A stretch of 64,000 nt of DNA from Alphaproteobacteria bacterium (GCA_965232515.1 CBDDPY010000002.1:2816001-2880000); one strand, 5' to 3'; positions 23,340 to 44,115 are shown, counted from the stretch's first letter. The notes: generated by a model not told the origin, from the letters alone. Program-made: numbers and translations.

Positions 23340-23676
23340 CTATCTGCTCCCTGCTTTGAAGATTGTCGTGATCGCTGCGTTTCGGTCGCTAATTCTATCG
23401 AGACGTCCGCAAAAAGGCGTCAAATAGAACCATAGAAATTCTCAGCTCGCGCCCAATATCCATAAGACGACTTTTTATATTCGATTCGCGACAGCCGCGT
23501 TGTCGTCAATTATATTAGAATTGGACAAACCGAAACTTGGCCCTATCGCCTCCCGTTGATTAGGCCGATCTGCCGATATCATCTGATCTTGTGGCAACTC
23601 TGTCAAACCAATTCCGGGGAAAACACAGGACTTCCCGTGGAATCACTTGGGTTTGACATCGCGGTTGGCCCGCGCG

Positions 23677-25206
23677 TCAGGGCCGGAACAATCCTTCGCC
23701 AACGGACCCGCGGAACCCGCCCTGCCGGATCCATGCCGCGACGGCGCCGATCTCCGCGGCAAGCGACCGGTCCTCGGCCAGAAACGGGCTGATCCGCCGA
23801 AGTTGTCCATGCACGGCCGACAGATCGGGCGACGTTGCCAGGGGCCGGCGTAACTCAACCGCCTGGGCGGCGGCCAGCAACTCTATGGCGATAACACCGG
23901 CGGCGTTCTCGCACATGGTGTCGAGACGCCGGGCGGCATAGGTCGACATCGAGACATGGTCTTCCTGATTGGCCGATGTCGGCAGGCTGTCGACGCTGGC
24001 GGGATGCGCCAGGGCCTTGTTTTCGCTGACCAGCGCCGCGGCGCTGACCTGCGCCAGCATGAAGCCCGAATTCAGGCCGCTGTCCGGAATCAGAAAGGCC
24101 GGCAGGCCGGAGTTCATGTTCGGATCGACCAGCAGCGCGATGCGTCGCTCGGCCAGCGCGCCGATTTCGGCGATCGCCAGCGCCAGGTTGTCGGCCGCAA
24201 AGGCCACCGGTTGACCATGGAAATTGCCGCCGCTCAGCACCTCGCCGCGGTCCGCGAAGACCAACGGGTTGTCGGACACCGCGTTCGCCTCGGTGCCCAG
24301 GACGGTCGCCGCATGCGACATCTGGTCCAGACAGGCGCCCATCACCTGCGGCTGACAGCGTAGCGAATAGGGGTCCTGCACCCGGTCGCAATCGATATGG
24401 GAATCGCGGATCTGGCTGCCGTCCAGCAGACGGACATAAACGTCCGCCACATCGCGCTGTCCGGCATGGCCGCGCAGCGCGTGAATGCGCGGGTCGAACG
24501 GCGTCGTGCTGCCAAGCGCACCATCCACCGACATGGCGCCGGCGACAACCGCGGCGGCGAACACGTTTTCAACGGCGAATAGCCCGGCGAGCGCAAGCGC
24601 CGTCGAGACCTGGGTGCCGTTCAGCAACGCCAGCCCTTCCTTCGCTTCCAGCGCGAGCGGTTTCAGTCCGGCTTTCGTCAGGCCCTTGGCGGCGGGCACC
24701 ACCTTTCCGTTCAGCCGGACCTCGCCCTCGCCGATCAGCACGGCGCTGAGATGCGCGAGCGGCGCCAGGTCGCCCGACGCGCCGACCGAGCCCTTCTCGG
24801 GCACGACCGGATAAGCCCCGGCGTTGAACAGCGCCACTAAAGCCTCGACGACCTCGCGCCGGACGCCGGAATGACCGAGCGCGAGGCTGCCGGCCTTCAG
24901 CGCCAGAACCAGCCGAATGACATCGTCGGCGAGTGGCGCGCCAAGGCCGGTCGCATGGCTCAAGACCAAACGTCGCTGCAGCGTTTGCAGTTGCGCGTCG
25001 TCGATGCGCGTGCGCGCCAGCAAGCCGAAGCCGGTATTGACGCCATAGATGGTGTCGCCCTTGTCGACGACGTCGCGCACGGCCCGTGCCCCGGCATCGA
25101 TGGCGGCATGGCATGCCGGGTCCAGGGTCAGCTTGACGCCGCCGTTCGCGATGCAGCGCAGGTCGCTCAACGAGAGCGCGCCCGGAGAAAGCTGGCGTGT
25201 CGTCAT
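23677..25206 (-). CDS. hutH: Histidine ammonia-lyase
   Basis: [22 protein letters not shown] (ASG MIO), [19 protein letters not shown] and [10 protein letters not shown]. Confidence 0.97.
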
Positions 25207-25352
25207 GGTCGATCCAGATCGATTCGTCGCGCCCGATAGCATGGCATGCGCGCGCGCTCGAGAGGCGAACGATTTCGCGCCGTGATGAACCGATTAGCCG
25301 ATATGGTAGGCGCCGCACGACACTTGATAAGAGCCACGAAAGGTCGGAACGC

Positions 25353-26525
25353 GTGACGGACAATCTCGGCGCCTTCATCAGCCACGACAAAGTCGCCATC
25401 AAAGGCGCGGAGAGCGGCCCCTTGCGGGGCCTGACGTTTGCCGCCAAGGACCTCTACGACATCGCCGGACACGTGACGGGCGCGGGCAATCCGGAATGGC
25501 TGCGCACGCACGAAGCCGCGACCGAAACCGCGCCGGCCGTGCGGATGTTGCTGGACGCCGGCGCCGATCTGATCGGCAAGACCCATACCGACGAGCTGGC
25601 CTACAGCCTGAACGGCGAGAACGTGCACTACGGCACGCCGGTGAACAGCGCCGCGCCCGGCCGCATTCCCGGCGGCTCGTCCAGCGGGTCGGCGTCCGCC
25701 GTCGCCGGCAAGGCGGTCGATTTCGCGTTGGGCAGCGATACCGGCGGTTCGGTCCGCATTCCGGCGAGCTATTGCGGGCTGTTCGGCCTCAGACCGACGC
25801 ATGGCCGCATACCCATCGATTGCGCCGTGCCGCTGGCGCCGAGCTTCGACACGGTTGGCTGGTTCACGCGAGACGGCGAACTGTTCCAGCGCGTCGGCGA
25901 AGTGCTGCTGCCGGACTATGCGGCAAAGCCCCGACCGCCATCGATCCTGCTGGCGCGCGACGCCTTCGACATGCTGCCCGGCGAAATCGCCTCGGCGCTC
26001 GCGCCGGCCGTGGTGCGGCTGGCCGCCCTGATCGGCAACGGCGTCGAAGTCACGGTCAGCCCGGACGGCCTCGATTCCTGGATGCCGCACTTTCGCGTGC
26101 TGCAGGCCTTCGAGGTCTGGCAATGCCATGGCGATTGGGTCGGCGCGCACAATCCCGATTTCGGCTCCGGCGTGCGCGAGCGGTTCGAGATGGCAGCCGG
26201 GATCAGCGAGGCCGAAGCCGCCGCACACCGGCCCGCGCGCGCCGCGATCACCGAACGCATGAACGACCTGCTGGCGGATGGCGCGGTACTCTGCCTGCCG
26301 ACGGCGCCCGGCATCGCGCCGCTGAAGGACACGCCGGCCGACGAGCTCGACGACTTCCGCTATCGGATCCTCGGCCTGACCTGCATCGCTGGTCTCTCCG
26401 GCTGTCCGCAGATCAGCCTACCGTTGGCCAGTTATCAGAACTGCCCACTCGGCCTGTCGCTGATCGCACGCCGCGGCGACGACGAGGTGCTGCTCGATAT
26501 CGCGGCCGAGATCGGTGTGGTTTAG
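25353..26525 (+). CDS. Amidase signature family protein
   Basis: AAKDL, PGGSSSGSASAV and LGSDTGGSVRIPASYCG. GTG start at 25353. Confidence 0.93.
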   Translation: MTDNLGAFISHDKVAIKGAESGPLRGLTFAAKDLYDIAGHVTGAGNPEWLRTHEAATETAPAVRMLLDAGADLIGKTHTDELAYSLNGENVHYGTPVNSAAPGRIPGGSSSGSASAVAGKAVDFALGSDTGGSVRIPASYCGLFGLRPTHGRIPIDCAVPLAPSFDTVGWFTRDGELFQRVGEVLLPDYAAKPRPPSILLARDAFDMLPGEIASALAPAVVRLAALIGNGVEVTVSPDGLDSWMPHFRVLQAFEVWQCHGDWVGAHNPDFGSGVRERFEMAAGISEAEAAAHRPARAAITERMNDLLADGAVLCLPTAPGIAPLKDTPADELDDFRYRILGLTCIAGLSGCPQISLPLASYQNCPLGLSLIARRGDDEVLLDIAAEIGVV

Positions 26526-30792: not shown

Positions 30793-31713
30793 TCAGACCG
30801 GATCCCAGCTGAACACGTCGGCCGAGCGGTCCAGCGGATAGAAATGCGCCTTCATGGCCGGCATGGCGTGCTCGGCAATGGCTTCGGGCGTCCAGCCCTC
30901 GCTGCGCTGCACCGAGCGGATCGGCCGGTTCTGGCTGAACAGGAAGATCTCGTTGTGGCGGCAGCCGAAAATCTGGCCCGTTACTTCCGAGGCGGCGTCG
31001 CTGCAGAGATAGACCGCCAGCGGCGCGATCTTGGCCGGCACCATGTTCTTGATCTTCTCGACACGCTCGCGCTGCGCCTCGTCCGCGATCGGGATCGTGC
31101 CGATCAGCCGGCTCCAGGCGAACGGCGAAATGCAGTTCGAACGCACGTTGAAGCGCGCCATGTCGAGCGCCACCGACTTCGACAGGCCGACGATGCCGAG
31201 CTTGGCCGCAGCGTAGTTCGCCTGACCGAAGTTGCCGACCAAGCCCGAGGTCGAGGTCATGTGCACCATGGCGCCGGACTGCTGCTCGCGGAATTGCGTC
31301 GCCGCCGCGCGGGCGACGTTGAAGCTGCCCTTCAGGTGCACCGAGATCACCGAGTCCCAGTCGTCCTCGGTCATCTTGTGAAAGATGACGTCGCGCAGGA
31401 TGCCGGCATTGTTGACGACGCAGTCGATGCGGCCATAGGTGTCGACGGCCTGTTGCACCATGTTCTGGGCGGCCTGGAAGTCGGTGACGCTGTCGTAGTT
31501 GGCGACCGCCTCGCCGCCGGCCTCCTTGATGTCGCCGACCACCTCCATGGCGGGCGTGCGGTCCGAGCCCTCGCCCTTCTCGGTGCCGCCGATATCGTTC
31601 ACCACCACCTTGGCGCCCTGGGCGGCCAGCAGCAGCGAGATGTCCCGGCCGATGCCGCGTCCGGCACCGGTCACGATGACCACCTTGTCCTTAACCATCT
31701 GTCCGTTCGTCAT
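30793..31713 (-). CDS. SDR family 3-hydroxyacyl-CoA dehydrogenase-like oxidoreductase
   Basis: TGAGRGIG, NNAGILRD and GNFGQANYAAAK. Confidence 0.93.
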   Translation of the reverse strand: MTNGQMVKDKVVIVTGAGRGIGRDISLLLAAQGAKVVVNDIGGTEKGEGSDRTPAMEVVGDIKEAGGEAVANYDSVTDFQAAQNMVQQAVDTYGRIDCVVNNAGILRDVIFHKMTEDDWDSVISVHLKGSFNVARAAATQFREQQSGAMVHMTSTSGLVGNFGQANYAAAKLGIVGLSKSVALDMARFNVRSNCISPFAWSRLIGTIPIADEAQRERVEKIKNMVPAKIAPLAVYLCSDAASEVTGQIFGCRHNEIFLFSQNRPIRSVQRSEGWTPEAIAEHAMPAMKAHFYPLDRSADVFSWDPV

Positions 31714-31859
31714 GGCGTTTACACCCTTACCCTGTTGTCGTTCCGGTCGTATCTGCCCTCTTTTTAGGCCGCGACAACCGGCGGGGCCAGCGCTTAACAC
31801 CATCGTTTTCGAAAATTACGGCCGTTCGTTAGAATGCGGACCGCACGGAGGAGACATTT

Positions 31860-32996
31860 ATGTTTGAACGCACGTTGTATGACGAGGAACACGAGATCTT
31901 TCGCGAGACGGCGCGCCGGTTCGTCGAGAAGGAGATCGTGCCCTATCACGACCAGTGGGAGAAGGACGGCCAGATCTCGCGTGAGGCCTGGCGCGCCGCC
32001 GGCGAGGCCGGACTGCTTTGCGCCACCATGCCGGTGGAGTATGGCGGCGCCGGGGCCGACTTCCGCTACAGCGCCGTCACCATCGAGGAGCTGGCGAAGG
32101 TCGGCGCCACGGGGCCCGGCTTCTATCTGCATTCCGAGATCGTCGCGCCCTACATCCTGCACTACGGCTCGGAGGACCAGAAACGCGAGTTGCTGCCGAA
32201 GATGGCAACCGGCGAGACCATCGGCGCCATCGCGATGACCGAGCCCGTGGCCGGCAGCGACCTGCAGGGCATCAAGACCACGGCCGTGCGCGACGGCAAC
32301 CATTTCGTCATCAACGGCCAGAAGGTCTTCATCACCAACGGCCAGCTCGCCGATCTGGTGATTACGGTCACCAAGACCGACGCGACCGAGGGCGCCAAGG
32401 GCGTGAGTTTGATTCTGGTCGAGCGCGAGCGTGAGGGCTTTGAGCGCGGCCGCAATCTCGAGAAGATCGGCTACAAGGCGCAGGACACATCCGAGCTGTT
32501 CTTCGACAACGTGCGGGTGCCGATCACCAATCTGCTGGGCGAGGAAGGCAAGGGCTTCGTGCAGCTGATGGAGCAGTTGCCGCAGGAGCGCCTGCTGGTC
32601 GCGATCCGCTGCGCCACGGCGATCGAGGCGGCGCTGGACGAGACCAACAACTACACCAAGGACCGCCAGGCCTTCGGCCGGCCGATCGCCAAGTTCCAGA
32701 ACACGCGGTTCAAGCTGGCCGAGATCAAGACCGAGGCCACCGTCGTGCGGATTTTCGTGGACCGCTGCATCGAGATGCACCTGAAGGGCGAGCTCGATGC
32801 GACGGACGCCGCCATGGCCAAGCTCTATACGACGGAACTGCTGAACAAGGTCCTGGACGAGTGCCTGCAGCTGCACGGCGGCTATGGCTATATGTGGGAA
32901 TACCCGATCGCCCGCGCCTGGGCCGATGCCCGCATGTCCCGCATCGCCGGCGGCACGTCGGAGATCATGAAGGAGATCATCGGCCGCTCGCTGTAG
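31860..32996 (+). CDS. Acyl-CoA dehydrogenase (long-chain type)
   Basis: AIAMTEPVAGSDL, NGQKVFITNG, QLHGGYGYMWEY and GGTSEIMKEII. Confidence 0.96.
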   Translation: MFERTLYDEEHEIFRETARRFVEKEIVPYHDQWEKDGQISREAWRAAGEAGLLCATMPVEYGGAGADFRYSAVTIEELAKVGATGPGFYLHSEIVAPYILHYGSEDQKRELLPKMATGETIGAIAMTEPVAGSDLQGIKTTAVRDGNHFVINGQKVFITNGQLADLVITVTKTDATEGAKGVSLILVEREREGFERGRNLEKIGYKAQDTSELFFDNVRVPITNLLGEEGKGFVQLMEQLPQERLLVAIRCATAIEAALDETNNYTKDRQAFGRPIAKFQNTRFKLAEIKTEATVVRIFVDRCIEMHLKGELDATDAAMAKLYTTELLNKVLDECLQLHGGYGYMWEYPIARAWADARMSRIAGGTSEIMKEIIGRSL

Positions 32997-33080
32997 AGGC
33001 AAGGGGGTGGGGGCCGCGCCCGGGAAACAACGGAACAACCCCATGCAAAGGGGGATTCGGGGGTCAAAGGGGACGGATTG

Positions 33081-34670
33081 ATGGGGAATTCGACAAAACC
33101 GGCGGCGCGGTTTTCCCGCATGGCGGACATGATCCGCCACCACGCCAGCGAGCGCGGCGACAAGGTGGCGCTGATCTTCGAGGGCCGCGAGACCCGCTAC
33201 CGGCAGCTCGACGACACCGCGAGCCGCATCGCCAACGCGATCATCGCCGACGGCGTCCAGCCGCAGGGCCGGGTCGCGATCCTGGCCAAGAACACGGATG
33301 CCTTCTTCGAACTCTACTACGGCGCCTGCAAGGCCGGCGCCGTGCTGGTGCCGGTGAATTTCCGCCTGGCGCCGCCCGAGGTCGCCTTCGTGGTCAACGA
33401 TGCCCAGGCCGACCTGCTGTTCGTCGGGCCGGATTTCTACGAGCTGGTCGAGGGCATCCGCAACGACCTGACGACGGTGAAAAAGATTGTCGCTTTGCCG
33501 GACCTTGACGGCAACAGTCACGGCGTCTGGACGGGCTACGACGACTGGCACGGCGCGCACGATGCGGCCGATCCCCGGCGCGACGGCGCGCCGCACGAGA
33601 CCTGCATACAAGTCTATTCCAGCGGCACCACGGGCCACCCCAAGGGCGTCGAGATCACGCACGACAATTTCATGACGCTGTTCGCGGTCGCCATCGAGGA
33701 CTGGGGCAACTGGCGGGTCGACGATGTCTCGATGGTGGCGATGCCGCTGTTCCATGTCGCCGGCAACGAATGGGGTTTCGTCGGCTTCTACATGGGCGCG
33801 ACCAACGTGCTGATGGCCGACGTGGACCCGGCCGCGATCCTGCGGACGATTCCCGAATACGGCATCACCAAGACGCTGTTCGTGCCGGCGGTCATCCTGT
33901 TCCTGCTGCAAACGCCCGGCTGCCGGGAGACCGACTTCTCCAGTCTGGAATCCGTGCTCTACGGCGCCTCGCCGATCCCGCTGCCGGTGCTGCAGGAAGC
34001 GGTCGAGGTGATCGGCTGCGACTTCGCGCAGGTCTACGGCCTGACCGAAACCAGCGGCGCCGTCACCTATCTGCCGCCGGAAGACCATGACGGCGGCGAG
34101 CGCATGAAGTCCTGCGGCAAGCCCATGCGCTCGGCCGAGATCCGCGTGGTCGACGACAACGGCGACGACTGCCCGCCCGGCACGGTCGGCGAGATCATCG
34201 TCGCCGGCGGCCAGATCATGAAGGGCTATTGGAACCTGCCCGAGGAGAGCGCCAAGGCGATCCGCGGCGAGTGGTTCCATTCCGGCGACGCCGGCTATTT
34301 CGACGAAGACGGCTATCTCTATATCCACGACCGCCTGAAGGACATGATCGTCTCCGGCGGCGAGAACATCTATCCGGCCGAGGTCGAAAGCGCCATGGCC
34401 GCCCATCCCGACGTCGCCGACATCGGCGTGATCGGCATCCCCGACGACAAGTGGGGCGAAACGGTCCTCGCCATCATCGTCGCGAAGGACCCGTCCTCAC
34501 CGCCGAGCGAAGCCGCCCTCGACGCCTTCGCCCGCGAACGCCTCGCCGGCTACAAGGTCCCCCGCCGCTACGCCTTCACCGACGCCCTCCCCCGCAACCC
34601 CTCGGGCAAGATCCTCAAACGCGAGCTCCGCAAGCCCTACTGGGAGGGGCAAGAGCGGCAGGTGCATTGA
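33081..34670 (+). CDS. Long-chain fatty acid--CoA ligase
   Basis: YSSGTTGHPKG AMP-binding motif, YGLTE, FHSGD, SGGENIYPAEVE and PRNPSGK. Confidence 0.94.
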   Translation: MGNSTKPAARFSRMADMIRHHASERGDKVALIFEGRETRYRQLDDTASRIANAIIADGVQPQGRVAILAKNTDAFFELYYGACKAGAVLVPVNFRLAPPEVAFVVNDAQADLLFVGPDFYELVEGIRNDLTTVKKIVALPDLDGNSHGVWTGYDDWHGAHDAADPRRDGAPHETCIQVYSSGTTGHPKGVEITHDNFMTLFAVAIEDWGNWRVDDVSMVAMPLFHVAGNEWGFVGFYMGATNVLMADVDPAAILRTIPEYGITKTLFVPAVILFLLQTPGCRETDFSSLESVLYGASPIPLPVLQEAVEVIGCDFAQVYGLTETSGAVTYLPPEDHDGGERMKSCGKPMRSAEIRVVDDNGDDCPPGTVGEIIVAGGQIMKGYWNLPEESAKAIRGEWFHSGDAGYFDEDGYLYIHDRLKDMIVSGGENIYPAEVESAMAAHPDVADIGVIGIPDDKWGETVLAIIVAKDPSSPPSEAALDAFARERLAGYKVPRRYAFTDALPRNPSGKILKRELRKPYWEGQERQVH

Positions 34671-34930
34671 GCGGGATCGCGGCGCATTGTCGCTTGCGGC
34701 TATCCCCGACAGCTCCAGACCCTCTCACGTCAAACCGCACGTCGGATGCAGAACGCCGTGTGGCGGCGCGAAATCGTCTGCAGTTGGCGACGAAGACAAG
34801 CAACGGTCCATTCATGCCGACAGCGCACCGCGTTCAGAGACGAAGTCGAAGCAAATCTTTGTAAATAACGAGTGGGTTTGCCGGCCAATACTCGGAAAAA
34901 CTTCCATCAAAAACTAACGGCCGTCTGAAT

Positions 34931-34960
34931 TTGACAGCCTTGGTTCGGGCAAGGAATACT
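34931..34960 (+). promoter_or_regulatory. Candidate sigma70 promoter of the ABC/selenoprotein operon
   Basis: TTGACA (34931-36), an 18-nt spacer and AATACT (34955-60), followed by a GGAGG RBS before ATG 34987. Confidence 0.5.
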
Positions 34961-34986
34961 ATTGCGCCTGGGAGGGGTTACCGATC

Positions 34987-36543
34987 ATGAAAACTGAGTA
35001 TCAAAGACACCATGCATCTGCTTTGGTGAAAGCAGCGTTCGCGGTTTTCGCCGCTGTCGCTTCCATTTTGACGATCACGCCGTTCGCCTACGCCGCGGAC
35101 GACATGCTGCGGGTTCGGATCGGGTCGGATGTGGGCGTGCTGGACCCGGCGCGCATTTTTGGCATCGAGAACCAGACCGTCGCGGGGCACATCTATAACG
35201 GCCTCGTCAAATACGATCAGGCGACCAATAAGATCATGCCGGATCTGGCGAGCGAATGGTCCGTGTCGGACGACGGCACCGAATACACCTTCACGCTGCG
35301 CGACGGCGTCACCTGGCACAAGGGCTATGGCGAGCTCACCGCCGACGACGTCAAGTTCTCGCTGGAACGCGTCCTCGATCCGGAGACGAAGAGCCGCTAC
35401 GCGGGCCAGCTCGCCGGCGTGACCGCGGTCAAGGCCGTCGACAAGCTGACCGTCAAGGTGATGCTCGACAAGCCGAACGCGGGTCTGCTGAACAAGCTGA
35501 CCGCCTTCAACCAGGGCTGGATCGTCTCGCGCAAGGCCGTGACGGACATCGGCGACAAGAACTACCAGATGCAGCCGATCGGCACGGGACCCTTCGTGTT
35601 CGAGAAATGGACGCCCGGCAACCAGGTCACGGTCACCGCCAACCCGGACTATTTCGAGGGCGCCCCGAAGATCTCGGGCGTCACTTTCAAGCTGATCAAG
35701 GACGAGACGGCGGCGGCGATCGCGCTGGAGAACGGCGAGATCGACATCTTCTTCGCCCTGCAGCAGCCGGTGATCATCGACCGGCTGAAAAACGCCAAGG
35801 GCGTCACCGTGCACGACCGGCCGGCGAACCACACCATCAACCTGGTACTGAACACGTCGAAGAAGCCGCTGGATAACGTGAAGGTGCGCCAGGCCATCGC
35901 CTACGGCGTCAACCGCGAAGGCCTGATTCAGGGCTACTTCAAGGGCACCAAGGCCATGGGCCACAGCGTGCTGACCTCGTCGTTCCCGGAATACACCGAG
36001 GACGTACCGCAATACCCGCACGATCCGGAAAAGGCGAAGGCCTTGCTGGCGGAATCGGGCGTCGGCACGTTCGAGCTGGAGCTGGTGAGCGTGGGCCTCA
36101 GCCCGTACGACCAGCTGATCATTCCGGTCGCGAACGACCTCAACAAGATCGGCATCGAGACCAAGATCACGATCCTGGAACGCGGCGCGTACCTGCAGGC
36201 ACGCACCAAGGGCGACGTCATGACCGTCGTCACCGGCGTGGTCGGCCCGCCCGATCCGGATTCGCCGCTGGTGACGCTCTACGCCACCAAGTCGTTCCCG
36301 CCTGGCCTGAACACGGCGCGCTACGACAAGGCGGACGACCTGCTGGCCCAGGCCGCCGGCGAACTGGACGCCGACAAGCGCACCGGCATCTACCGGCAGC
36401 TCCTGAAGCAGACCATGACGGACGTGCCCGTGCTGCCGCTCTACGCCGACCGGCTGTTCATCGCCCATTCCGATGCGGTGACCGGCTTCGTGCAGAACTC
36501 GCTGTTCACGATGCACTCGTATTCGGTGTCGCTGAACCGCTAA
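34987..36543 (+). CDS. ABC transporter substrate-binding protein, family 5
   Basis: Signal peptide, PDLASEWSVSDDGTEYTFTLRDGVTWH and PIGTGPF. Confidence 0.95.
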   Translation: MKTEYQRHHASALVKAAFAVFAAVASILTITPFAYAADDMLRVRIGSDVGVLDPARIFGIENQTVAGHIYNGLVKYDQATNKIMPDLASEWSVSDDGTEYTFTLRDGVTWHKGYGELTADDVKFSLERVLDPETKSRYAGQLAGVTAVKAVDKLTVKVMLDKPNAGLLNKLTAFNQGWIVSRKAVTDIGDKNYQMQPIGTGPFVFEKWTPGNQVTVTANPDYFEGAPKISGVTFKLIKDETAAAIALENGEIDIFFALQQPVIIDRLKNAKGVTVHDRPANHTINLVLNTSKKPLDNVKVRQAIAYGVNREGLIQGYFKGTKAMGHSVLTSSFPEYTEDVPQYPHDPEKAKALLAESGVGTFELELVSVGLSPYDQLIIPVANDLNKIGIETKITILERGAYLQARTKGDVMTVVTGVVGPPDPDSPLVTLYATKSFPPGLNTARYDKADDLLAQAAGELDADKRTGIYRQLLKQTMTDVPVLPLYADRLFIAHSDAVTGFVQNSLFTMHSYSVSLNR

Positions 36544-36571
36544 CCCGCGTTCGGAAGCGGTTGGGGTCGCC

Positions 36572-37513
36572 GTGGTCAAATACCTGGCGCAACGTTTGTT
36601 GCTGATGGGCATCACGGTCACCGGCATGGTGACCGTGGTGTTCTTTCTGCTGCGGCTGATCCCCGGCGACCCGGCGGAATACATGCTGGGCGACTACGCG
36701 ACCGAGGAAAGCCTGGCCGCGCTTCGGGCCGAACTCGGTCTCGACCTGGCGATCCACGAGCAATACCTGCGCTTCATGGGCCGGGCCTTCAGCGGCGATC
36801 TCGGCACCTCGGTCGTGACCGGCCAACCGGCGCTGGACGAGGTGCTGGCGAGCCTGCCCTGGTCGGCTGCGCTGGCGCTGGCCGGCATCATCATCGCGGT
36901 GGTGATCGGCGTCCCGCTCGGGGTCATATCGGCGGTGCGGCAGGGCAGCTGGACCGATCTCGGCGTCATGCTGATCGCGCTCGCCGGTATTTCCTTTCCG
37001 GTGTTCTGGGTCGGCCTTGTCGGGATTTTGATCTTCGCGCACGAGCTGCCGCTGTTCCCGGCACTCGGCGCCAGCTCGTCCGACAACGTGCTGACGCAGC
37101 TGCACCATCTGGCGCTGCCGGCGCTGGTGCTCGGCACGTCGGTCGCGGCCTATATCGCGCGGCTGACGCGCTCGGCCATGTTGGAGGTGCTGGGACAGGA
37201 ATATGTCCGCGTCGCCCGGGCCATGGGCGTGCGCGAGACCCGCGTGGTCTACCGCCTGGCGCTGCGCAACGCGCTGATCCCGGTGCTGTCGGTCATCGGC
37301 GTGACCTTCGCCTGGTCGCTCGGCAGCGCAATCCTGGTCGAGGCCGTGTTCAGCCGGCCCGGCCTCGGCTCGATGATCCTGAAGGCGATCTTCGCGCGCG
37401 ACTATCAGCTCGTACAGGCCGGCGTGATGGTGCTGTCGCTCGCGGTCGTCCTGATCAACACCAGTCTCGACATTGTCTACGGCATCGTCGATCCGCGGGT
37501 GCGCACGGGATGA
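36572..37513 (+). CDS. ABC transporter permease (DppB-like)
   Basis: IPGDPA, GDLGTS, RLTRSAMLEVL and ALRNAL. Confidence 0.95.
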   Translation: MVKYLAQRLLLMGITVTGMVTVVFFLLRLIPGDPAEYMLGDYATEESLAALRAELGLDLAIHEQYLRFMGRAFSGDLGTSVVTGQPALDEVLASLPWSAALALAGIIIAVVIGVPLGVISAVRQGSWTDLGVMLIALAGISFPVFWVGLVGILIFAHELPLFPALGASSSDNVLTQLHHLALPALVLGTSVAAYIARLTRSAMLEVLGQEYVRVARAMGVRETRVVYRLALRNALIPVLSVIGVTFAWSLGSAILVEAVFSRPGLGSMILKAIFARDYQLVQAGVMVLSLAVVLINTSLDIVYGIVDPRVRTG

Positions 37514-38400
37514 CCGACGCTTCGACGACGGCGCCGGCGCGCACGGCCTTTGGCGGCATCCGGTCCCGCTATCTGCGTCATCCGGGATTCATGACCGGCC
37601 TGATCGTTATCGCGGCCATATCCATCGTCGCCATCGGCGCGCCCGTCTTCGCGCCCTACTCGCCGCTGGAAACCGACATGCTGAAGACGTTGGCGCCGCC
37701 GTCATGGGAGCATCCGCTGGGCACCGACCAGTTCGGCCGAGACGTGCTGTCGCGGCTGATCTGGGGGGCGCAGATCTCGCTTCAGGTCGCGGCCATGGTG
37801 GTGGTGATCTCGCTGACATTCGGGACGCTGATCGGCGCCGTCGCCGGGTATGCCGGCGGCTGGGTGGAGCGTGTCATCATGGTCGGCAACGACATCCTGC
37901 TGGCGTTTCCCGGCTTCCTGCTGGCGCTGGCGCTGGTGGCGGTGCGGGGGTCGTCGCTCGAATCCGTGATCCTGGCCGTCTCGATCGCCTATACGCCGCG
38001 GGTCGCGGCGGTGATGCGCTCGGTCGTGCTGACGATCAAGCCGCGCCCCTATATCGAGGCCAGCCAGGCCATCGGCATGACGGCGAGCCGCGTGCTGTTC
38101 GTACATGTCATCCCGAACGCCCTGCCGCCCGTCATCGTCGTCGCTACGGTCAGCGCCGCGACCGCGATCCTGGCGGAGGCCGGCCTCAGTTATCTCGGCC
38201 TCGGCGTGCAGCCGCCGGCCGCGACCTGGGGCAACGTGATCTCGGACGGGCAGAGCTACATCATCTCCAATCCCTGGATCTCGATCTCCGCCGGCGCCTG
38301 CATCGCCATCGTCGTGATCGCGCTGAACCTGCTGGGCGACGGCCTGCGCGACACGCTGGACCCGCAGATGCGCCGCTATGCCGGCTCGCGGATGTTGTAG
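37510..38400 (+). CDS. ABC transporter permease (DppC-like)
   Basis: HPLGTDQFGRDVLSR, HVIPNA and LLGDGLRDTLDP. ATGA overlap with the upstream gene. Confidence 0.95.
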   Translation: MTDASTTAPARTAFGGIRSRYLRHPGFMTGLIVIAAISIVAIGAPVFAPYSPLETDMLKTLAPPSWEHPLGTDQFGRDVLSRLIWGAQISLQVAAMVVVISLTFGTLIGAVAGYAGGWVERVIMVGNDILLAFPGFLLALALVAVRGSSLESVILAVSIAYTPRVAAVMRSVVLTIKPRPYIEASQAIGMTASRVLFVHVIPNALPPVIVVATVSAATAILAEAGLSYLGLGVQPPAATWGNVISDGQSYIISNPWISISAGACIAIVVIALNLLGDGLRDTLDPQMRRYAGSRML

Positions 38401-38404
38401 CGCC

Positions 38405-39424
38405 ATGCCGGACGGAACCCCGCAAGCGACATACGCGCTAGACGTGCGGAACTTGCGCACGGCCTTCCCGACCGACACCGGCACCATTGCCGTGGTCGAC
38501 GACGTCTCGCTGGCGATCCGGCCGCGCGAGACCCTGGCCGTCGTGGGCGAGTCCGGCTCCGGCAAGACCATGACTTTCCTGTCTGTGCTGGGCCTGACGC
38601 CGCCGCCCGGCAAGGTGGTCGGCGGCGAGGTCCTGTTCGGCGGCCGGGACCTGACCAAGCTGTCGACGGAAGAACTTCGCGACATCCGCGGCGCCGGCAT
38701 CGCCATGGTGTTCCAGGACCCGCTGACGGCGCTGAACCCGGTCTTCACCATCGGCGCGCAGATCGTCGAGGTGATCCGCGCGCACCGGCCGGTCGGCCTT
38801 CGGGAAGCGCGAGAGCAGGCCGTCGAGCTGCTGGCCCGCGTGCATATTCCCGACCCCGCCCGCCTTATCGACAACTATCCGCATCAACTGTCTGGCGGCA
38901 TGCGGCAGCGCACGCTGATCGCCATGGCGATCGCGCTCGAGCCGGCGCTGCTGATCGCGGACGAACCGACGACGGCGCTCGACGTGACGGTGCAGGCGCA
39001 GATCCTGGAACTGCTGGCCGAGCTGCGGGAGTCCTATGACATGGGCATGGTGCTGATCACGCACGACCTGGGCCTGGTGGCGAAATACGCCGACCGCATG
39101 GCGGTGATGTATGCCGGCCGCGTGGTCGAGTATTGCGAGATCCACGAGGGCTTCGCGGCGGCGCGGCACCCCTACACCCATTCGCTGCTGCGCAGCATTC
39201 CCCGGCTCGACGCGCCCGCCGGCGAGGATCTGGCGGCGATTGAAGGCCAGCCGCCGAACCTGGAGACGTTGCCGCCGGGCTGCGCCTTCCGGCCACGCTG
39301 CTTCCTCGGATCGGAACGCACGGATTGCGCGGCCGAACGGCCGGCGTTGATGCCGACCGACCGCGACGCGCATTTGAGCGCCTGCCTGCATTGGCGCGCG
39401 CTTTCGGCCGGCGGGAGTCAGTGA
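38405..39424 (+). CDS. ABC transporter ATP-binding protein (DppD-like)
   Basis: [25 protein letters not shown] and HPYT. Confidence 0.95.
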
Positions 39425-40491
39425 CGGCCATGGCGGAACCAATGACCGGCGACGCGGACGTGCTGCTGCAGATGGCGCGCGTCAGCAAGACGTTCAGCAA
39501 GTCGGAAGGCCTGTTCAGCCGCCGACGCCACACGGTCAAGGCGGTCGACGACGTGACGTTCACGCTTTACCGGGGCGAGACCCTGGGCCTGGTCGGCGAG
39601 ACCGGCAGCGGCAAGAGCACGCTCGGGCGCCTGGCGCTGCGACTGCTCGCGCCCGACGGCGGCCGCATCGAATTCGACGGCACCGACACCACGGACCTGT
39701 CGCCGCGCCAAGTCCGCCCGCTCAGGCGCAGGGCGCAGATGGTGTTCCAGGACCCCTACGGCTCGCTCGATCCCCGCAAGAAGGTGTCGTCGATCCTGGC
39801 CGAGCCGCTGGTCGTGCATGGCCTCTGGGACAAGGACGGCCAGCAGCGGCTGCTGGACATCCTGGACAAGGTCGGCCTGCAACCGGCGCACCTCGATCGC
39901 TATCCGCACGAGTTCTCGGGCGGGCAGCGCCAGCGCATCGGCATCGCCCGCGCCATGGTGCTGAACCCGGATCTGTTGGTGCTGGACGAGCCGGTCTCGG
40001 CGCTTGATGTCTCGATCCAGGCGCAGATCATCAACCTGCTGCGCGCGCTGCAGCGGCAGGCAGGACTGACCTTCCTGTTCATCGCCCACGATCTGGCCGT
40101 TGTGCGGCATGTCAGCGATCGGGTCGCGGTGATGTATCTCGGCCGGATTGTCGAGATCGGTCCGCGCGACGATCTCTACCGCGCGCCGCGCCACCCTTAT
40201 ACCGTCTCGCTGTTGTCGGCCGTACCGGTGCCGGACCCGGATCTCGAGCGCCAGCGAACCCGCGTGCTGCTGCATGGCGAGATCGGCTCGGCCACGGACA
40301 TGCCCGGCGGCTGCCGCTTCCATCCGCGCTGCTACAAGGCCCGGCTGCTGGCCGACCGGCCCGATGTCGAGACGGTCGCCGCCAAGGACGGTACCCGGCT
40401 GCCGCGCGCCTGCGTCGAGCGGGCGCCCGAGCTTGCCGGCGACAACGGCCATCTGGCGGCATGCCATTTCCCGGAAGCCGCGAGCGATTAG
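39421..40491 (+). CDS. ABC transporter ATP-binding protein (DppF-like)
   Basis: GETGSGKST, FSGGQRQR, DEPVSALD and GCRFHPRC. GTGA overlap with the upstream gene. Confidence 0.95.
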   Translation: MTAMAEPMTGDADVLLQMARVSKTFSKSEGLFSRRRHTVKAVDDVTFTLYRGETLGLVGETGSGKSTLGRLALRLLAPDGGRIEFDGTDTTDLSPRQVRPLRRRAQMVFQDPYGSLDPRKKVSSILAEPLVVHGLWDKDGQQRLLDILDKVGLQPAHLDRYPHEFSGGQRQRIGIARAMVLNPDLLVLDEPVSALDVSIQAQIINLLRALQRQAGLTFLFIAHDLAVVRHVSDRVAVMYLGRIVEIGPRDDLYRAPRHPYTVSLLSAVPVPDPDLERQRTRVLLHGEIGSATDMPGGCRFHPRCYKARLLADRPDVETVAAKDGTRLPRACVERAPELAGDNGHLAACHFPEAASD

Positions 40492-40546
40492 GCACCCACA
40501 TCGGGCGCGCAGGTTGTATGATTTGGATAGTGGTCAGGAGAACGGA

Positions 40547-41308
40547 ATGAGCGACGCGATCAGGGTATTCTGGCAACCGCATTGAACCAGCTGTCTCCGG
40601 GTTAAGGATTACCTGTCGGTCCGTGGGATCGAATTCGAATCCGTAAACGTGCTGGAAGAGAGCGGTATGGCGGCGCTGCAGGCGCTCGGCGCGCGTAGCG
40701 TGCCCGTGGTGTCGAAGGGCGACAAGTTCGTCTTCGCGCAGGTCATCAAGGATGTGGTCGACTTCCTGGAGCTCGAGGACGACACCGCGCCCGAGCTGTC
40801 GCCGGACGCGCTGGCGGCACGCTATGACGGCATCCTGGAAACGGCGATCCGGTTGACGCGGCAGATGCCAGACGCGCGCCTCGAGGACGAGCTGCCGAAC
40901 CGGCCGCGATCCTGGCGGGTGCTGATGCACCATGTCTTCCAGATCCCGGTGGCGTTCCTCGACATGGAGGAAACGGGCGCGACGCTGACCTACGAAACCA
41001 TGGTGGCGCCGCCGCCGGACGACATGACCAGCAGCGCCGACATCGCCCGGTTCGGCGAGGCCGTGCGCGCCCGCTTCCAGGATTGGTGGGCGGACGCCAG
41101 GGGTGGCGACTTTTCGGGCGACGTGCCGACTTACTTCGGCGCCACGTCGCGGCACGAGATGCTGGAACGCACGGTCTGGCATTCGACCCAGCACGTGCGC
41201 CAGGTCGCCTCGCTGTTGCAGCAGGCGGGTGTCACGCCGGACCGGCCGCTGACGGCGGCCGATATCGAGAACTTGCCGCTGACCGAGGCGGTTTGGGACG
41301 AGACCTGA
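40547..41308 (+). CDS. Probable selenoprotein: glutaredoxin-like (UxxC) domain fused to a DinB/YfiT-like domain
   Basis: AGGAG RBS (40536-40) and ATG 40547 give MSDAIRVFWQPH-[TGA 40583-85]-TSCLRVKDYLSVRGIEFESVNV, in frame with ORF 40649..41308. Grx features include RSVPVV (cis-Pro). DinB His motifs are LMHH and WHSTQH. Confidence 0.82.
40597..40620 (+). promoter_or_regulatory. Putative bacterial SECIS hairpin
   Basis: After an 11-12 nt spacer following the UGA, cgggu(u)aa-GGA-uuaccug forms a stem with a bulged U and a G-first apical loop. ACC/GGT can close a lower stem. Confidence 0.6.
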
Positions 41309-41329
41309 TACGGACGAGGAAGGACGAAC

Positions 41330-41983
41330 ATGACGGACATCGACAGCCAGCAGAACTATTACGACAAGATCGGATTCAGCGAGCGCCTGGGCTTCGGCAA
41401 GCGGCCGGCCGTGCTGGTGATCGACATGAGCCGCGGCATTACCGAGCCCGGCAAGATGTATATCGACATGGACGAGCACATCCCGCGCATCCAGGCGATC
41501 AACGAGGCGGCGCGGCGGATCGGCGCGCCGGTGATCTTCACCACGGTCGCCTATCACAAGGATCTCGCCGACGCCGGCACCTTCGGCCAGAAGGTGCCGC
41601 TGGTGCAGAACCTGCTCTACGGCTCGACCGACGTCGAGATCGACCCGCGCCTGCCGGTCGAGGAATCGGACCACCTGCTGGTGAAGAAGTTCCCGAGCGC
41701 CTTCTACGGCACCAACCTGCAGTCGATGCTGACCGGCCTCGGCGTCGACACCACCATCATCGTCGGCAACTCGACCAGCGGCTGCGTGCGGGCGACGACC
41801 TGCGACGCCATCTCGGGCGGCTTCCGCCCTGTTGTCCCCAGCGACTGCGTCGCCGACCGCGCGCCGCTGTCGCACGAGGTGAACCTGTTCGACATGGACT
41901 CGAAATACGCCGACGTCATGCCGAGCGGCGAGGTGCTCGCCTATCTCGACGGCCTGGCTACGGACCGGGTCGCGGCCGAGTAG
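41330..41983 (+). CDS. Isochorismatase-family cysteine amidohydrolase (maleamate amidohydrolase / N-carbamoylsarcosine amidase-like)
   Basis: GFGKRPAVLVID, KKFPSAFYGT and STSGCVRAT catalytic D-K-C triad. Confidence 0.9.
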   Translation: MTDIDSQQNYYDKIGFSERLGFGKRPAVLVIDMSRGITEPGKMYIDMDEHIPRIQAINEAARRIGAPVIFTTVAYHKDLADAGTFGQKVPLVQNLLYGSTDVEIDPRLPVEESDHLLVKKFPSAFYGTNLQSMLTGLGVDTTIIVGNSTSGCVRATTCDAISGGFRPVVPSDCVADRAPLSHEVNLFDMDSKYADVMPSGEVLAYLDGLATDRVAAE

Positions 41984-41994
41984 TCACCTCATAC

Positions 41995-42020
41995 GTCATG
42001 CCCGGACGTGATCCGGGCAT
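41995..42020. repeat. Half copy of the REP-like element GTCATGCCCGG..CCGGGCAT
   Basis: gtcatgcccggacgtgatccgggcat matches the left arm at 61255-61280 at 25 of 26 positions. Confidence 0.7.
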
Positions 42021-42949
42021 TCCGGCAGGGGCGGATCGGCGGAGATGCCGTTCATGGCCGCGACGCCGGGCCAGTAGTCGCTGCGGCGGAGCTGGCAGTC
42101 GAAGAACTCGTAGCGGAACCGTTCCTTGCCGGGGAAGTCCGGCGGCCACCCGTCGTCCAGGAATTGCCGCGCCCGGGCGTAGTGGCCGGTATAGATCAAC
42201 TCCAGCATGATGTCCCACAGCTTGAAGTCGTAGGGGTAGACGTCGATGCTGCCCCAATATTCGCTGTTGCGCAGCGCCTGCGCTTCGCGCCGCAGCGTCT
42301 CTTCGGAGATCGCGGACCGACGCATCAGTTCCGGCGCGAACCGGTACTTGCCGTCGCGGAACTTAAGCACGACGCCGGGCGCCGGCGAGCTGGCGAAACT
42401 CGTTTTCCAGTAGGCGAAATTAAAGTCGTAAAGCTGCGCCTCAAGCGCCGGATCGTCGTCGAGGTTCGAGAAACTCATTGGGGAGTCGCCCGTATGGAAC
42501 TCCTGCACTTTCCGGAAGGCCTTACCGACGGAATAGATATGGTAGGAATAGCAGCAATGCGCGCCGCCGGAATAAGTGGCGACCAGTACGTTCGGTTCGC
42601 CGTCGCCCGTCATGTCCTTGCCCAGCGGTATAGGCGGCACACGGTCCCAGAACGGCAACGCTCTCGGACCGACATAGATGTGTTGCTCTTCTAATTCGTC
42701 GACGATGCGGCCGGCGTTTTCGATCACCAGGCGGTCCTCCAAGCTGATGCGCCAACCGATCATGCCGCATCTGATGTCATAGATCCGGAAGGTGTAGTCG
42801 CCGATCGACGCCGATGTTTCGAGTTCCGGCCTGGCGTCACTGCTGTCGGCCGTCGTCGGAACGATGCACACCGATACCAGCGCAACGGCGAAAGCCACGG
42901 TCAGAGCCACACACCGCTTCCGTAAACCCTCCACCCGTGGGATCATCAT
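41996..42949 (-). CDS. Secreted hypothetical protein with a GGAHCC motif
   Basis: N-terminal hydrophobic signal, a DMTGDGEP Dx[DN]xDG-like loop and TYSGGAHCCY. Confidence 0.72.
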   Translation of the reverse strand: MMIPRVEGLRKRCVALTVAFAVALVSVCIVPTTADSSDARPELETSASIGDYTFRIYDIRCGMIGWRISLEDRLVIENAGRIVDELEEQHIYVGPRALPFWDRVPPIPLGKDMTGDGEPNVLVATYSGGAHCCYSYHIYSVGKAFRKVQEFHTGDSPMSFSNLDDDPALEAQLYDFNFAYWKTSFASSPAPGVVLKFRDGKYRFAPELMRRSAISEETLRREAQALRNSEYWGSIDVYPYDFKLWDIMLELIYTGHYARARQFLDDGWPPDFPGKERFRYEFFDCQLRRSDYWPGVAAMNGISADPPLPECPDHVRA

Positions 42950-43137
42950 CTCTGCCGCCCGCTCCCGGTCATCTTGGAACGAACGCATCTTATCATAGAA
43001 AAATCTAACTTATATACACTAAGAAGTAGAATTCAATTTCAGCGGCATACTTCGATCCACACCGAAGCACGGGCCAGAACCAAGCGTTACCTTCGCCGAC
43101 GTTCACTGAATGACATCGGCGGGAAGGCAGGCGGCTC

Positions 43138-44115
43138 ATGGCGAATGCGGCGCGAGCGTCAAACCGAGCGGTGGAGCTGGCGCTGTTGGGGTTGCTGGCG
43201 TTCCTGTGGGGGGCGTCCTATCCATTATTGAAGGTAGCGGTGGCGGAGATCCCGCCGCTGACGGTGATCGCGGTGCGGGTCGCGACGGCGGCGGCGGTGC
43301 TGACCGCGTTGGCGCGGTGGCAGGGCCATCGTCTGCCGCGCGAGACCAAGATGTGGCGGGCGCTGCTGGTGCAGGCCTTCTGCAACAGCATCGGCGCCTG
43401 GACGCTGCTGGCCTGGGGACAGCGCCATGTCGACAGCGGTCTCGCGGGCGTGCTGAATTCGACGTCGCCGATTTTCGTCTTCGCGATGACGTGGCTCTGG
43501 ACCCGGCACGAGGCGGTGAACGGCCGCAGGCTGCTCGGCGCCCTGCTGGGGCTGGCGGGCGTGGTCCTGATCATCGGCATCGACGTGCTGCAGGGACTGG
43601 GCCGAGAGGTGGTTGCGCAGGCTGCCGTGCTGGCGGGCGCCGTGCTCTATGCGATCGCGGCGATCTACGGCAAGCGCTTCGCCGGCCAGCCGCCGGCGGT
43701 GACGGCGGCCGGCACGATGATCTGGGCGACGGTCTGCCTGGTACCGCTCAGCCTCACCGTCGAGCGGCCGTGGACGCTGCAGCCCTCGATGGCGGCGATC
43801 ATGGCCACGGCCATACTGGCCGTGTTGTCGACGGCGCTGGCGCTGCTGCTCTATTTCCGGCTGGTGCGAACGCTGGGGTCGATGGGCGTCGCCAGCCAGA
43901 GCTATCTTCGGGCCGGCATCAGCGTCCTGCTTGGCGTGGTCCTGCTGGGCGAGACGATCAGCTGGCCGGTCGGCCTAGGCCTGGCGGCGATCATCGCCGG
44001 CGTCGCCGCCATCAATGTCGCGAGACCACGCCGTCCCGCTCAGTCGGGTGAGGCGAGCAGATCCGGATACACGAGAAAGGCCGTCACGAGGAACGCCAGC
44101 AGGCCGGCGGCCTGA
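43138..44115 (+). CDS. EamA/DMT family transporter
   Basis: LWGASY, SGLAGVLNSTSPIF, LLGE and multiple TM helices. Confidence 0.9.
   Translation: MANAARASNRAVELALLGLLAFLWGASYPLLKVAVAEIPPLTVIAVRVATAAAVLTALARWQGHRLPRETKMWRALLVQAFCNSIGAWTLLAWGQRHVDSGLAGVLNSTSPIFVFAMTWLWTRHEAVNGRRLLGALLGLAGVVLIIGIDVLQGLGREVVAQAAVLAGAVLYAIAAIYGKRFAGQPPAVTAAGTMIWATVCLVPLSLTVERPWTLQPSMAAIMATAILAVLSTALALLLYFRLVRTLGSMGVASQSYLRAGISVLLGVVLLGETISWPVGLGLAAIIAGVAAINVARPRRPAQSGEASRSGYTRKAVTRNASRPAA

Follow-up and report, generated by a model that had tools for sequence, protein, structure and literature searches.

Introduction

Does a selenoprotein gene that lies between the genes of an importer and of an amidohydrolase take part in the breakdown of what the importer brings in? 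The question is raised by a stretch of DNA of 64,000 nucleotides from an Alphaproteobacteria bacterium (GCA_965232515.1, CBDDPY010000002.1:2816001-2880000), hereafter the window at its full length, which belongs to a genome of 7.39 Mb with a G+C content of about 65%. A preliminary description of this window, made from the sequence alone, proposed that seven genes at 34987-41983, encoding an ATP-binding cassette (ABC) importer, a glutaredoxin-DinB fusion containing selenocysteine (Sec), hereafter Grx-DinB, and an isochorismatase-family hydrolase, form an operon for a selenium-dependent catabolic pathway. What the sequences show directly is the set of genes, the Sec codon and a pairing of Grx-DinB with the hydrolase that recurs; a selenium-dependent breakdown pathway at the locus is possible. 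New in this work is the recurrence of Grx-DinB together with a defined amidohydrolase and importer, as well as the AhpD-type protein that stands in its place elsewhere.

Results

Selenocysteine codon of the Grx-DinB gene

Open reading frame (ORF) and Pfam analyses located the seven co-oriented genes of the preliminary description exactly where they had been placed, all on the + strand:

34987..36543, + strand: substrate-binding protein (SBP), family 5 (Dpp/Opp/Nik/Gsi type), 518 aa (PF00496, 311 bits)
36572..37513, + strand: ABC permease, DppB/OppB type (BPD_transp_1, 142.6 bits, and BPD_transp_1_N)
37510..38400, + strand: ABC permease, DppC/OppC type (BPD_transp_1, 103.5 bits, and OppC_N), with a 4-nt overlap with the preceding gene
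38378..39424, + strand: ABC ATPase, DppD/OppD type (ABC_tran and oligo_HPY)
39430..40491, + strand: ABC ATPase, DppF/OppF type, start at ATG 39430 or GTG 39421 (ABC_tran, 113 bits, and oligo_HPY)
40547..41308, + strand: glutaredoxin-DinB fusion selenoprotein, 253 aa, U13-T-S-C16 (translation; PF00462)
41330..41983, + strand: isochorismatase-family cysteine amidohydrolase, 217 aa, N-carbamoylsarcosine amidase clade (PF00857, 119 bits)

The sixth gene is a selenoprotein gene by the following elements:

40583..40585, + strand: Sec codon TGA, codon 13, first position of the redox motif W-Q-P-H-U-T-S-C
40616..40632, + strand: hairpin resembling a selenocysteine insertion sequence (SECIS), UCGGUCC-GUG-GGAUCGA, 7 bp with a G-U-G apical loop (RNAalifold consensus)
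C2:5873594-5884533, outside the window: cluster of selD, tRNA-Sec, selB and selA (profile matches)

The TGA at 40583-40585 is the sole interruption in a frame of 253 codons. Among 47 loci of a species-wide collection, TGA occupies the Sec position in all 44 that cover it, and exactly one in-frame TGA is present in each of 29 full-length matches, down to 44% identity, from 61 genomes of relatives; the 12 codons 5' of the TGA and the surrounding motif are conserved down to the same identity, always with TGA. A Cys form is represented by P0010 (252 aa, 75% identical, W-Q-P-H-C-T-S-C), the only full-length Cys form among 8 proteins examined from the best 120 homologues, the others starting 3' of the TGA. 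Downstream, the stem of the hairpin begins 30 nt after the UGA and its GUG loop lies 37 nt after it; in bacteria the distance from UGA to the SECIS loop is usually 16-37 nt, which places this loop at the upper edge of the usual range. Across 58 sequences, 90.8% of cells are paired and 3 of the 7 pairs show compensatory changes, one of which couples a Val-to-Ala with an Ile-to-Val change. The covariation score was reached by none of 500 shuffles, a test whose result kinship among the sequences can inflate, and slid controls were 12.8-64.8% paired. The single-sequence fold after the TGA is unremarkable against shuffles (z -1.07), the hairpin being visible in the alignment only, and an Rfam scan of 34000-43000 with E up to 5 returned no riboswitch or SECIS family and one chance microRNA match. 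The genome carries the complete Sec machinery, with selB (429 bits), tRNA-Sec (71.6 bits), selD (290 bits) and selA (576 bits) all above cut-offs. With 778 aa, the open frame that contains the selD match points to a fusion like the NADH-dehydrogenase-SelD outlined in the literature for marine bacteria.

Since the TGA is conserved, a Cys form exists, the hairpin covaries and the Sec machinery is complete, the TGA at 40583-40585 is, on comparative sequence grounds, a genuine Sec codon, and the selenoprotein claim of the preliminary description is upheld. The alternative that the TGA is a plain stop, the real gene being a DinB-only ORF of 213-219 aa behind a short untranslated frame, would agree with public gene calls that begin 3' of the TGA and with the lack of an Rfam bacterial SECIS match, yet it is already contradicted by the sequence data, namely the conserved codons and motif before an invariable TGA, the full-length Cys form, the covarying hairpin, the Sec machinery and a Pfam glutaredoxin match that runs across the TGA, and we give it next to no credence.

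Domain architecture and distribution of Grx-DinB

The N-terminal part of the protein (residues 6-62) matches glutaredoxin PF00462 with 37.1 bits against a cut-off of 22.9, and it is nearest to protein-disulfide reductases of the NrdH and YruB types, with neither equivalog cut-off reached; the fusion scores below the cut-off of every NCBIfam model. The Pfam DinB cut-offs are likewise not reached (DinB_2, 20.6 bits against 24.8; DinB, 19.2 bits against 23). An AlphaFold2 model built on 47 sequences (predicted local distance difference test, pLDDT, 95.2; predicted template modelling score, pTM, 0.91) was compared with solved structures by Foldseek, and its C-terminal part proved to have the DinB/YfiT fold, with a template modelling (TM) score of 0.82-0.83 to 6iz2 (DR0053) over about 150 columns and further matches at TM 0.70-0.71 to 2p1a, 2qe9 and 2f22. 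The whole chain gave weak structure matches only, of the glutathione S-transferase (GST) type. Residues F8, W9, P11, U13, S15, C16, the cis-proline P53, H129, H212 and H216 are invariant in the alignment; U13-x-x-C16 sits before helix 14-25 in the model, and H129, H212 and H216 are probably metal ligands of the DinB domain. With this fold and three invariant histidines, the DinB part of the preliminary description stands.

The DinB/YfiT thiol-dependent enzymes comprise bacillithiol and mycothiol S-transferases and the mycothiol-dependent maleylpyruvate isomerase. Grx-DinB has in common with these metalloenzymes the four-helix DinB fold and the three histidines, and it differs from them in scoring below the Pfam DinB cut-offs and in that the thiol or selenol would be supplied by the fused domain instead of a free low-molecular-weight thiol.

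Database searches yielded 1777 homologues of Grx-DinB. Most of the best 120 are gene calls of 211-222 aa starting 3' of the TGA, and the public call of the window's own gene (P0005) is a 213-aa tail only. Within this bacterial family, 28 of the 32 genomes contain a strong match; the gene is single-copy in each genome searched, at variable locations.

Importer and amidohydrolase

The five genes before Grx-DinB make up a complete importer of the Dpp/Opp type by Pfam, with a family 5 SBP, two permeases and two oligo_HPY ATPases. Their frames are open with no in-frame TGA, and the SBP and permeases match their families end to end. The SBP scores best in NCBIfam with GsiB (206 bits), NikA (205) and DppA (194), all far under the cut-offs, and has DppA-like solved relatives at about 1e-57; the ATPase at 38378-39424 reaches 330 bits with OppD against a cut-off of 575. 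The importer has the same five-gene architecture and Pfam domains, including oligo_HPY, as the Dpp, Opp, Gsi and Nik importers, and unlike those named systems it falls short of the GsiB, NikA, DppA and OppA equivalog cut-offs.

The seventh gene product has full-length solved relatives in 26st (2e-47), 4l07 (3e-44), 1nba (9e-42) and 3ot4 (9e-36), of which 26st, the nearest, and 1nba are N-carbamoylsarcosine amidohydrolases. We take 4l07/4l08 and 3ot4/3uao to be the maleamate amidohydrolases Ami and NicF; the titles of 4l07 and 3ot4 name no activity, and a literature search on NicF, maleamate and N-carbamoylsarcosine amidohydrolases returned nothing relevant to the activity of these two entries. 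All of these proteins share with the window's hydrolase full-length similarity and an invariant Asp-Lys-Cys triad, which here consists of D32, K119 and C152 and is invariant in 27 hydrolase sequences. The cut-offs of the NCBIfam equivalogs BiuH, RutB and PRK11440 were not reached. As judged from these relationships, the protein belongs to the N-carbamoylsarcosine/maleamate amidase clade of isochorismatase-like cysteine hydrolases, in line with the family named in the preliminary description, and its substrate would be a small peptide-like amide or an N-carbamoyl carboxylate. The gene context sets it apart from clusters for creatinine or nicotinate, as the window has neither a maleate isomerase nor a hydantoinase gene beside the hydrolase gene.

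Linkage of Grx-DinB and the amidohydrolase

Close orthologues of the hydrolase (75-95% identity) occur at 14 loci besides the window, after which identity drops to 36-41%, in Actinobacteria. Grx-DinB lies directly 5' of the hydrolase gene in 5 of these 14 loci (6 of 15 with the window), in several surroundings. The order ABC-Grx-hydrolase is found in the window and L057/L104, and likewise in L060 up to the end of its contig; the order Grx-hydrolase-ABC in L068/L110 and its duplicate L091/L111; and the pair without ABC genes in L080/L105 and L099. The gap between the two genes is 18-21 bp (window, L105, L099), 23 bp (L104) or 99 bp (L110). L068 and L091 (also L110 and L111) have identical tblastn matches and an identical Grx-DinB protein and come from metagenome-assembled genomes (MAGs) of Planctomycetota and of Ectothiorhodospiraceae in one study; at least one of these bins therefore has a misplaced or shared contig.

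In a further 4 of the 14 loci (L106, L107, L108 and L109), the slot of Grx-DinB is occupied by a gene for an AhpD-family CxxC protein, which lies 12-15 bp 5' of the hydrolase gene in L106 and L107 and directly upstream of it in L108 and L109:

L106:7038-7985 and L107:1733-2323: AhpD-family gene, about 197 aa, motif N-E-C-P/S-Y-C-T-V-H-H (C-x-x-C-x-x-H-H)

Its product matches PF02627 and TIGR00778 (33 bits against a cut-off of 27.8); the next-best NCBIfam names, below cut-off, are 'peroxidase-related enzyme' and 'YciW-related (seleno)protein'. A TauD-type dioxygenase gene and two class II aldolase genes are found near such loci. In the hydrolase tree, the rows linked to Grx-DinB fall in three lineages, and the AhpD-linked and ABC-only groups are clades. 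A distinct, conserved cluster surrounds hydrolase homologues of about 40% identity in Actinobacteria (L118, L125, L129, L138, L140 and L142), with genes for a PEP-mutase/isocitrate-lyase-like protein, Amidohydro_1 (about 470 aa), the hydrolase, a cupin and a metallo-beta-lactamase, and looks like a pathway for a nitrogen compound.

Viewed from Grx-DinB, the linkage occurs only among orthologues at least 75% identical. Among 20 loci from relatives, only a same-genus contig has the ATPase and hydrolase genes beside Grx-DinB, and the resulting impression that linkage is limited to the same genus was overturned by wider scans, including the 47 further loci of the species-wide collection. The linkage of Grx-DinB with the hydrolase is thus real but narrow. 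The distribution suggests that in one shallow lineage Grx-DinB came to adjoin the 5' side of the hydrolase gene and was retained there through rearrangements.

At other loci, Grx-DinB is accompanied by Old Yellow Enzyme-type reductases with luciferase-like monooxygenases and glyoxalase-fold proteins, by a monooxygenase, a short-chain dehydrogenase and a P450, by CBS-BON and hemerythrin proteins, and by PhyH dioxygenases, nitroreductases, GSTs and several non-orthologous amidases; such company across the family points to chemistry on small molecules, either redox or with electrophiles. The possibility that one orthologous amidase is the common partner was considered and rejected, as the amidases beside Grx-DinB or the hydrolase are only 24-36% identical between groups, which leaves a loose theme of amide hydrolysis. 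At L048, Grx-DinB adjoins a Pyr_redox_2-AIRS (Ndh-SelD-like) fusion gene, with hydantoinase A/B genes close by.

Gene arrangement and transcription signals

The gaps between genes 1 to 7 are, in order, 28, -4, -23, 5 (or -4), 55 and 21 bp. Other elements of the region are the following:

34931..34960, + strand: sigma-70-like promoter candidate, TTGACA-18 nt-AATACT, in the 316-bp gap 5' of the SBP gene
31860..32996, + strand: acyl-CoA dehydrogenase, co-oriented upstream context
33078..34670, + strand: acyl-CoA ligase, co-oriented upstream context

The 316-bp gap parts the acyl-CoA gene pair from the SBP gene, and a ribosome-binding site, GGGAGGGG, lies 5' of the SBP ATG at 34987. The promoter candidate, 27 bp 5' of the SBP start, is the sole such site in 31500-43200, where shuffles predict 1.6. 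Of the single sigma-70-like promoter in the preliminary description, the apt position before the SBP gene can be retained, and the number of sites is not above chance. Neither a terminator-like nor a promoter-like site was present between genes 5, 6 and 7, and the region 3' of gene 7 likewise had no terminator-like site.

Contigs from three RNA libraries (runs X4, X10 and X13) of one study, labelled as another organism, match 34800-42100 of the window and keep its gene order across the two junctions; as such contigs, 90-99% identical, occur in RNA libraries, a close relative lives in those samples. An X4 contig (40405-40845) bridges the ATPase/Grx junction, running from the end of the ATPase gene across the gap and the start of Grx-DinB to beyond the TGA, and three contigs, one study and three runs in all, bridge the Grx/hydrolase junction. 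The polyA run X21 yielded no reads from this region, a result that carries no weight either way. Gene spacing, the absence of terminator-like sites and the bridging contigs are compatible with co-transcription of Grx-DinB with its neighbours, which they weakly support.

Regarding the remaining sequence around the cluster, an 870-aa ORF on the - strand (31794-34406), antisense to the acyl-CoA genes, is probably spurious, having no credible Pfam or NCBIfam match in this G+C-rich genome. The hydrolase gene is met tail to tail, with 13 bp between the two stops, by a 330-aa ORF on the - strand (41996-42988), which has a hydrophobic N-terminal stretch and matches nothing in Pfam or NCBIfam. Further away, 9-13 kb upstream (21645-26525), the window encodes a second family 5 SBP, an aromatic amino acid (histidine/phenylalanine) ammonia-lyase and an amidase, the last of which attains the NCBIfam PRK08310 cut-off; beyond this set lies a - strand run of EamA, HAD, HpcH aldolase, Ldh_2, MaoC and SDR genes.

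Discussion

At just under even confidence, we propose that the importer and amidohydrolase form a module that recruited a widespread single-copy selenoenzyme as a thiol/selenol redox accessory, functional coupling being plausible. The importer would bring in a small amide or N-carbamoyl carboxylate for cleavage by the cysteine amidohydrolase, and this lineage, together with a small number of close relatives, would have recruited the selenoenzyme to assist the hydrolase, most probably through expression from the same transcript. Its selenolate may add to, or reduce, a thiol-reactive group such as an activated double bond or a disulfide in the imported compound or its product, with the attack taking place at the DinB site, and the resolving Cys16 together with a cellular reductase would then recycle Grx-DinB. 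In other lineages, the AhpD-type CxxC protein may do an equivalent job without selenium.

Several results weigh against this proposal. A hydrolase orthologue adjoins Grx-DinB at 5 of the 47 loci, two of these five being identical copies in different MAGs and one the same-genus contig already counted among relatives, and at 1 of the 20 loci of relatives; orthologous ABC genes adjoin it at 4 of the 47. All linked loci lie in one shallow region of the tree, where a clade of 12 rows holds 5 linked and 7 unlinked, and a single origin of the linkage, read from this tree, is possible. On the hydrolase side, 5 of the 14 close orthologues have the hydrolase and ABC genes without an adjacent redox gene, 3 of them with a divergent amidase gene upstream, and a Sec-containing Grx-DinB is encoded elsewhere in the genome for 4 of these 5 loci and for the AhpD-type locus L106. 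The root of the hydrolase tree is on a very long branch, leaving its polarity unsure, and among 31 neighbouring proteins scanned at 13 of the 34 distant actinobacterial loci (hydrolase identity 36-41%) no DinB, Grx or AhpD gene was present. The SBP and the hydrolase reach no substrate-specific NCBIfam equivalog cut-off. The RNA-library contigs derive from a relative 90-99% identical, at a depth of 3-9, and also cover the region 5' of the promoter-like site, and DNA carry-over in these libraries is possible. Moreover, selA lies directly 3' of Grx-DinB at 4 loci, and a single copy in varied places, including before selA, is more readily understood of a general enzyme than of one dedicated to a pathway. 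These four loci belong to Hyphomicrobiaceae MAGs (L069:6865-8280, L070:6856-8271, L074:6881-8296 and L075:1327-2742).

In a rival reading, Grx-DinB is a general-purpose redox or detoxification selenoenzyme that in one shallow lineage adjoins an ordinary importer-amidohydrolase operon by chance, with no role in the pathway. Such incidental co-location, doubtful though far from negligible, would account for one copy per genome in varied places, for neighbours as different as flavin reductases, monooxygenases, P450, CBS-BON/hemerythrin proteins and selA, for a linkage confined to one shallow clade and missing from 7 of its 12 rows, and for the hydrolase-ABC unit without Grx-DinB at 5 loci; moreover, as a gap of 18-21 bp leaves little room for a rearrangement to strike, the pair may have been retained neutrally. 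It sits less easily with a pair that outlasted at least two changes of flanking genes, with a different gene of CxxC redox type in the exact slot at four other loci, and with tight spacing free of terminator-like sites. The conserved link to transporters and hydrolases expected in the preliminary description fails for most of the family, given the counts of both locus sets and the variable location, and stands among the nearest orthologues, where the pair occurs in three flanking arrangements and the AhpD-type gene fills the slot.

A narrower role, which we consider unlikely, is enzyme maintenance: in oxic water, Grx-DinB or the AhpD-type protein that replaces it would hold the hydrolase's catalytic C152 in the reduced form or keep adducts off it, with no action on the metabolite. 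In keeping with this, the hydrolase relies on an invariant Cys, Grx-DinB and the AhpD-type protein share a UxxC/CxxC redox motif and no fold, and the glutaredoxin domain is nearest to the NrdH-/YruB-type protein-disulfide reductases. The presence of a conserved DinB domain that carries a His triad would have no explanation under maintenance, five hydrolase loci do without such a neighbour, and we know of no partner reductase for this hydrolase family, although no search for one was made, which also counts against it.

Recruitment as an accessory, as proposed above, also has a stronger and improbable form, in which Grx-DinB is a self-contained GST-like enzyme whose own selenolate replaces glutathione, mycothiol or bacillithiol at the DinB metal site. 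The imported compound would be an unsaturated or thiol-reactive amide, and either ahead of the amidohydrolase or once that enzyme has acted, Grx-DinB would carry out a step that depends on selenium, namely cis-trans isomerisation, conjugate reduction or disulfide cleavage; in sister lineages, the AhpD-type proteins would be the selenium-free replacements of Grx-DinB. Taken as a whole, the interpretation offered in the preliminary description is sustained in its gene content, selenoprotein, hydrolase clade and DinB fold, and not in a family-wide linkage.

Regarding known systems, ocean metagenomes have yielded predictions of 'Grx' and 'Grx-like' selenoproteins with a UxxC motif (Zhang, Fomenko & Gladyshev 2005, PMC1088965; Zhang & Gladyshev 2008, PMC2398784), and a Sec-glutaredoxin of Clostridium is listed in a 2026 review (PMC13188914). 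These proteins have in common with the window protein the glutaredoxin fold, a UxxC motif that opens with Sec, the existence of Cys homologues and a downstream SECIS hairpin, whereas the window protein adds a C-terminal DinB domain. DinB is not mentioned in the main texts of these three articles, whose sequence supplements may list the fusion, and no selenoproteome paper came up in a literature search that combined DinB with selenoproteins or selenocysteine. The placement of a selenoprotein within an uptake operon had been called unusual; a precedent exists in the SAO locus, which encodes selenoproteins within an ABC-uptake locus, as does the window, and was proposed to have a metabolic and not a stress role (Haft & Gwadz 2022, bioRxiv 10.1101/2022.07.06.499078). 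The two loci differ in every component: in SAO, the binding protein and permease are themselves selenoproteins, with CU motifs, in anaerobes, whereas the window has a transporter without TGA and a cytosolic Grx-DinB. The window cluster thus lacks the Sec in both SBP and permease by which SAO membership is defined.

Grx-DinB selenoproteins are widespread and routinely truncated by gene callers, and the pairing with an assayable amidohydrolase and a dedicated importer provides an experimental entry point to their function, for which the AhpD-type partner is a natural selenium-free comparison. Should the coupling be false, the locus would be an ordinary importer-hydrolase operon containing a mis-annotated selenoprotein gene. 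If it is true, selenium use would be tied to the uptake and breakdown of organic nitrogen, beyond stress defence and anaerobic respiration. If Grx-DinB proved to be the self-contained GST-like enzyme, there would be a selenium requirement in the aerobic organic-nitrogen catabolism of marine Alphaproteobacteria, and a first functional handle on more than 1,700 uncharacterised sequences.

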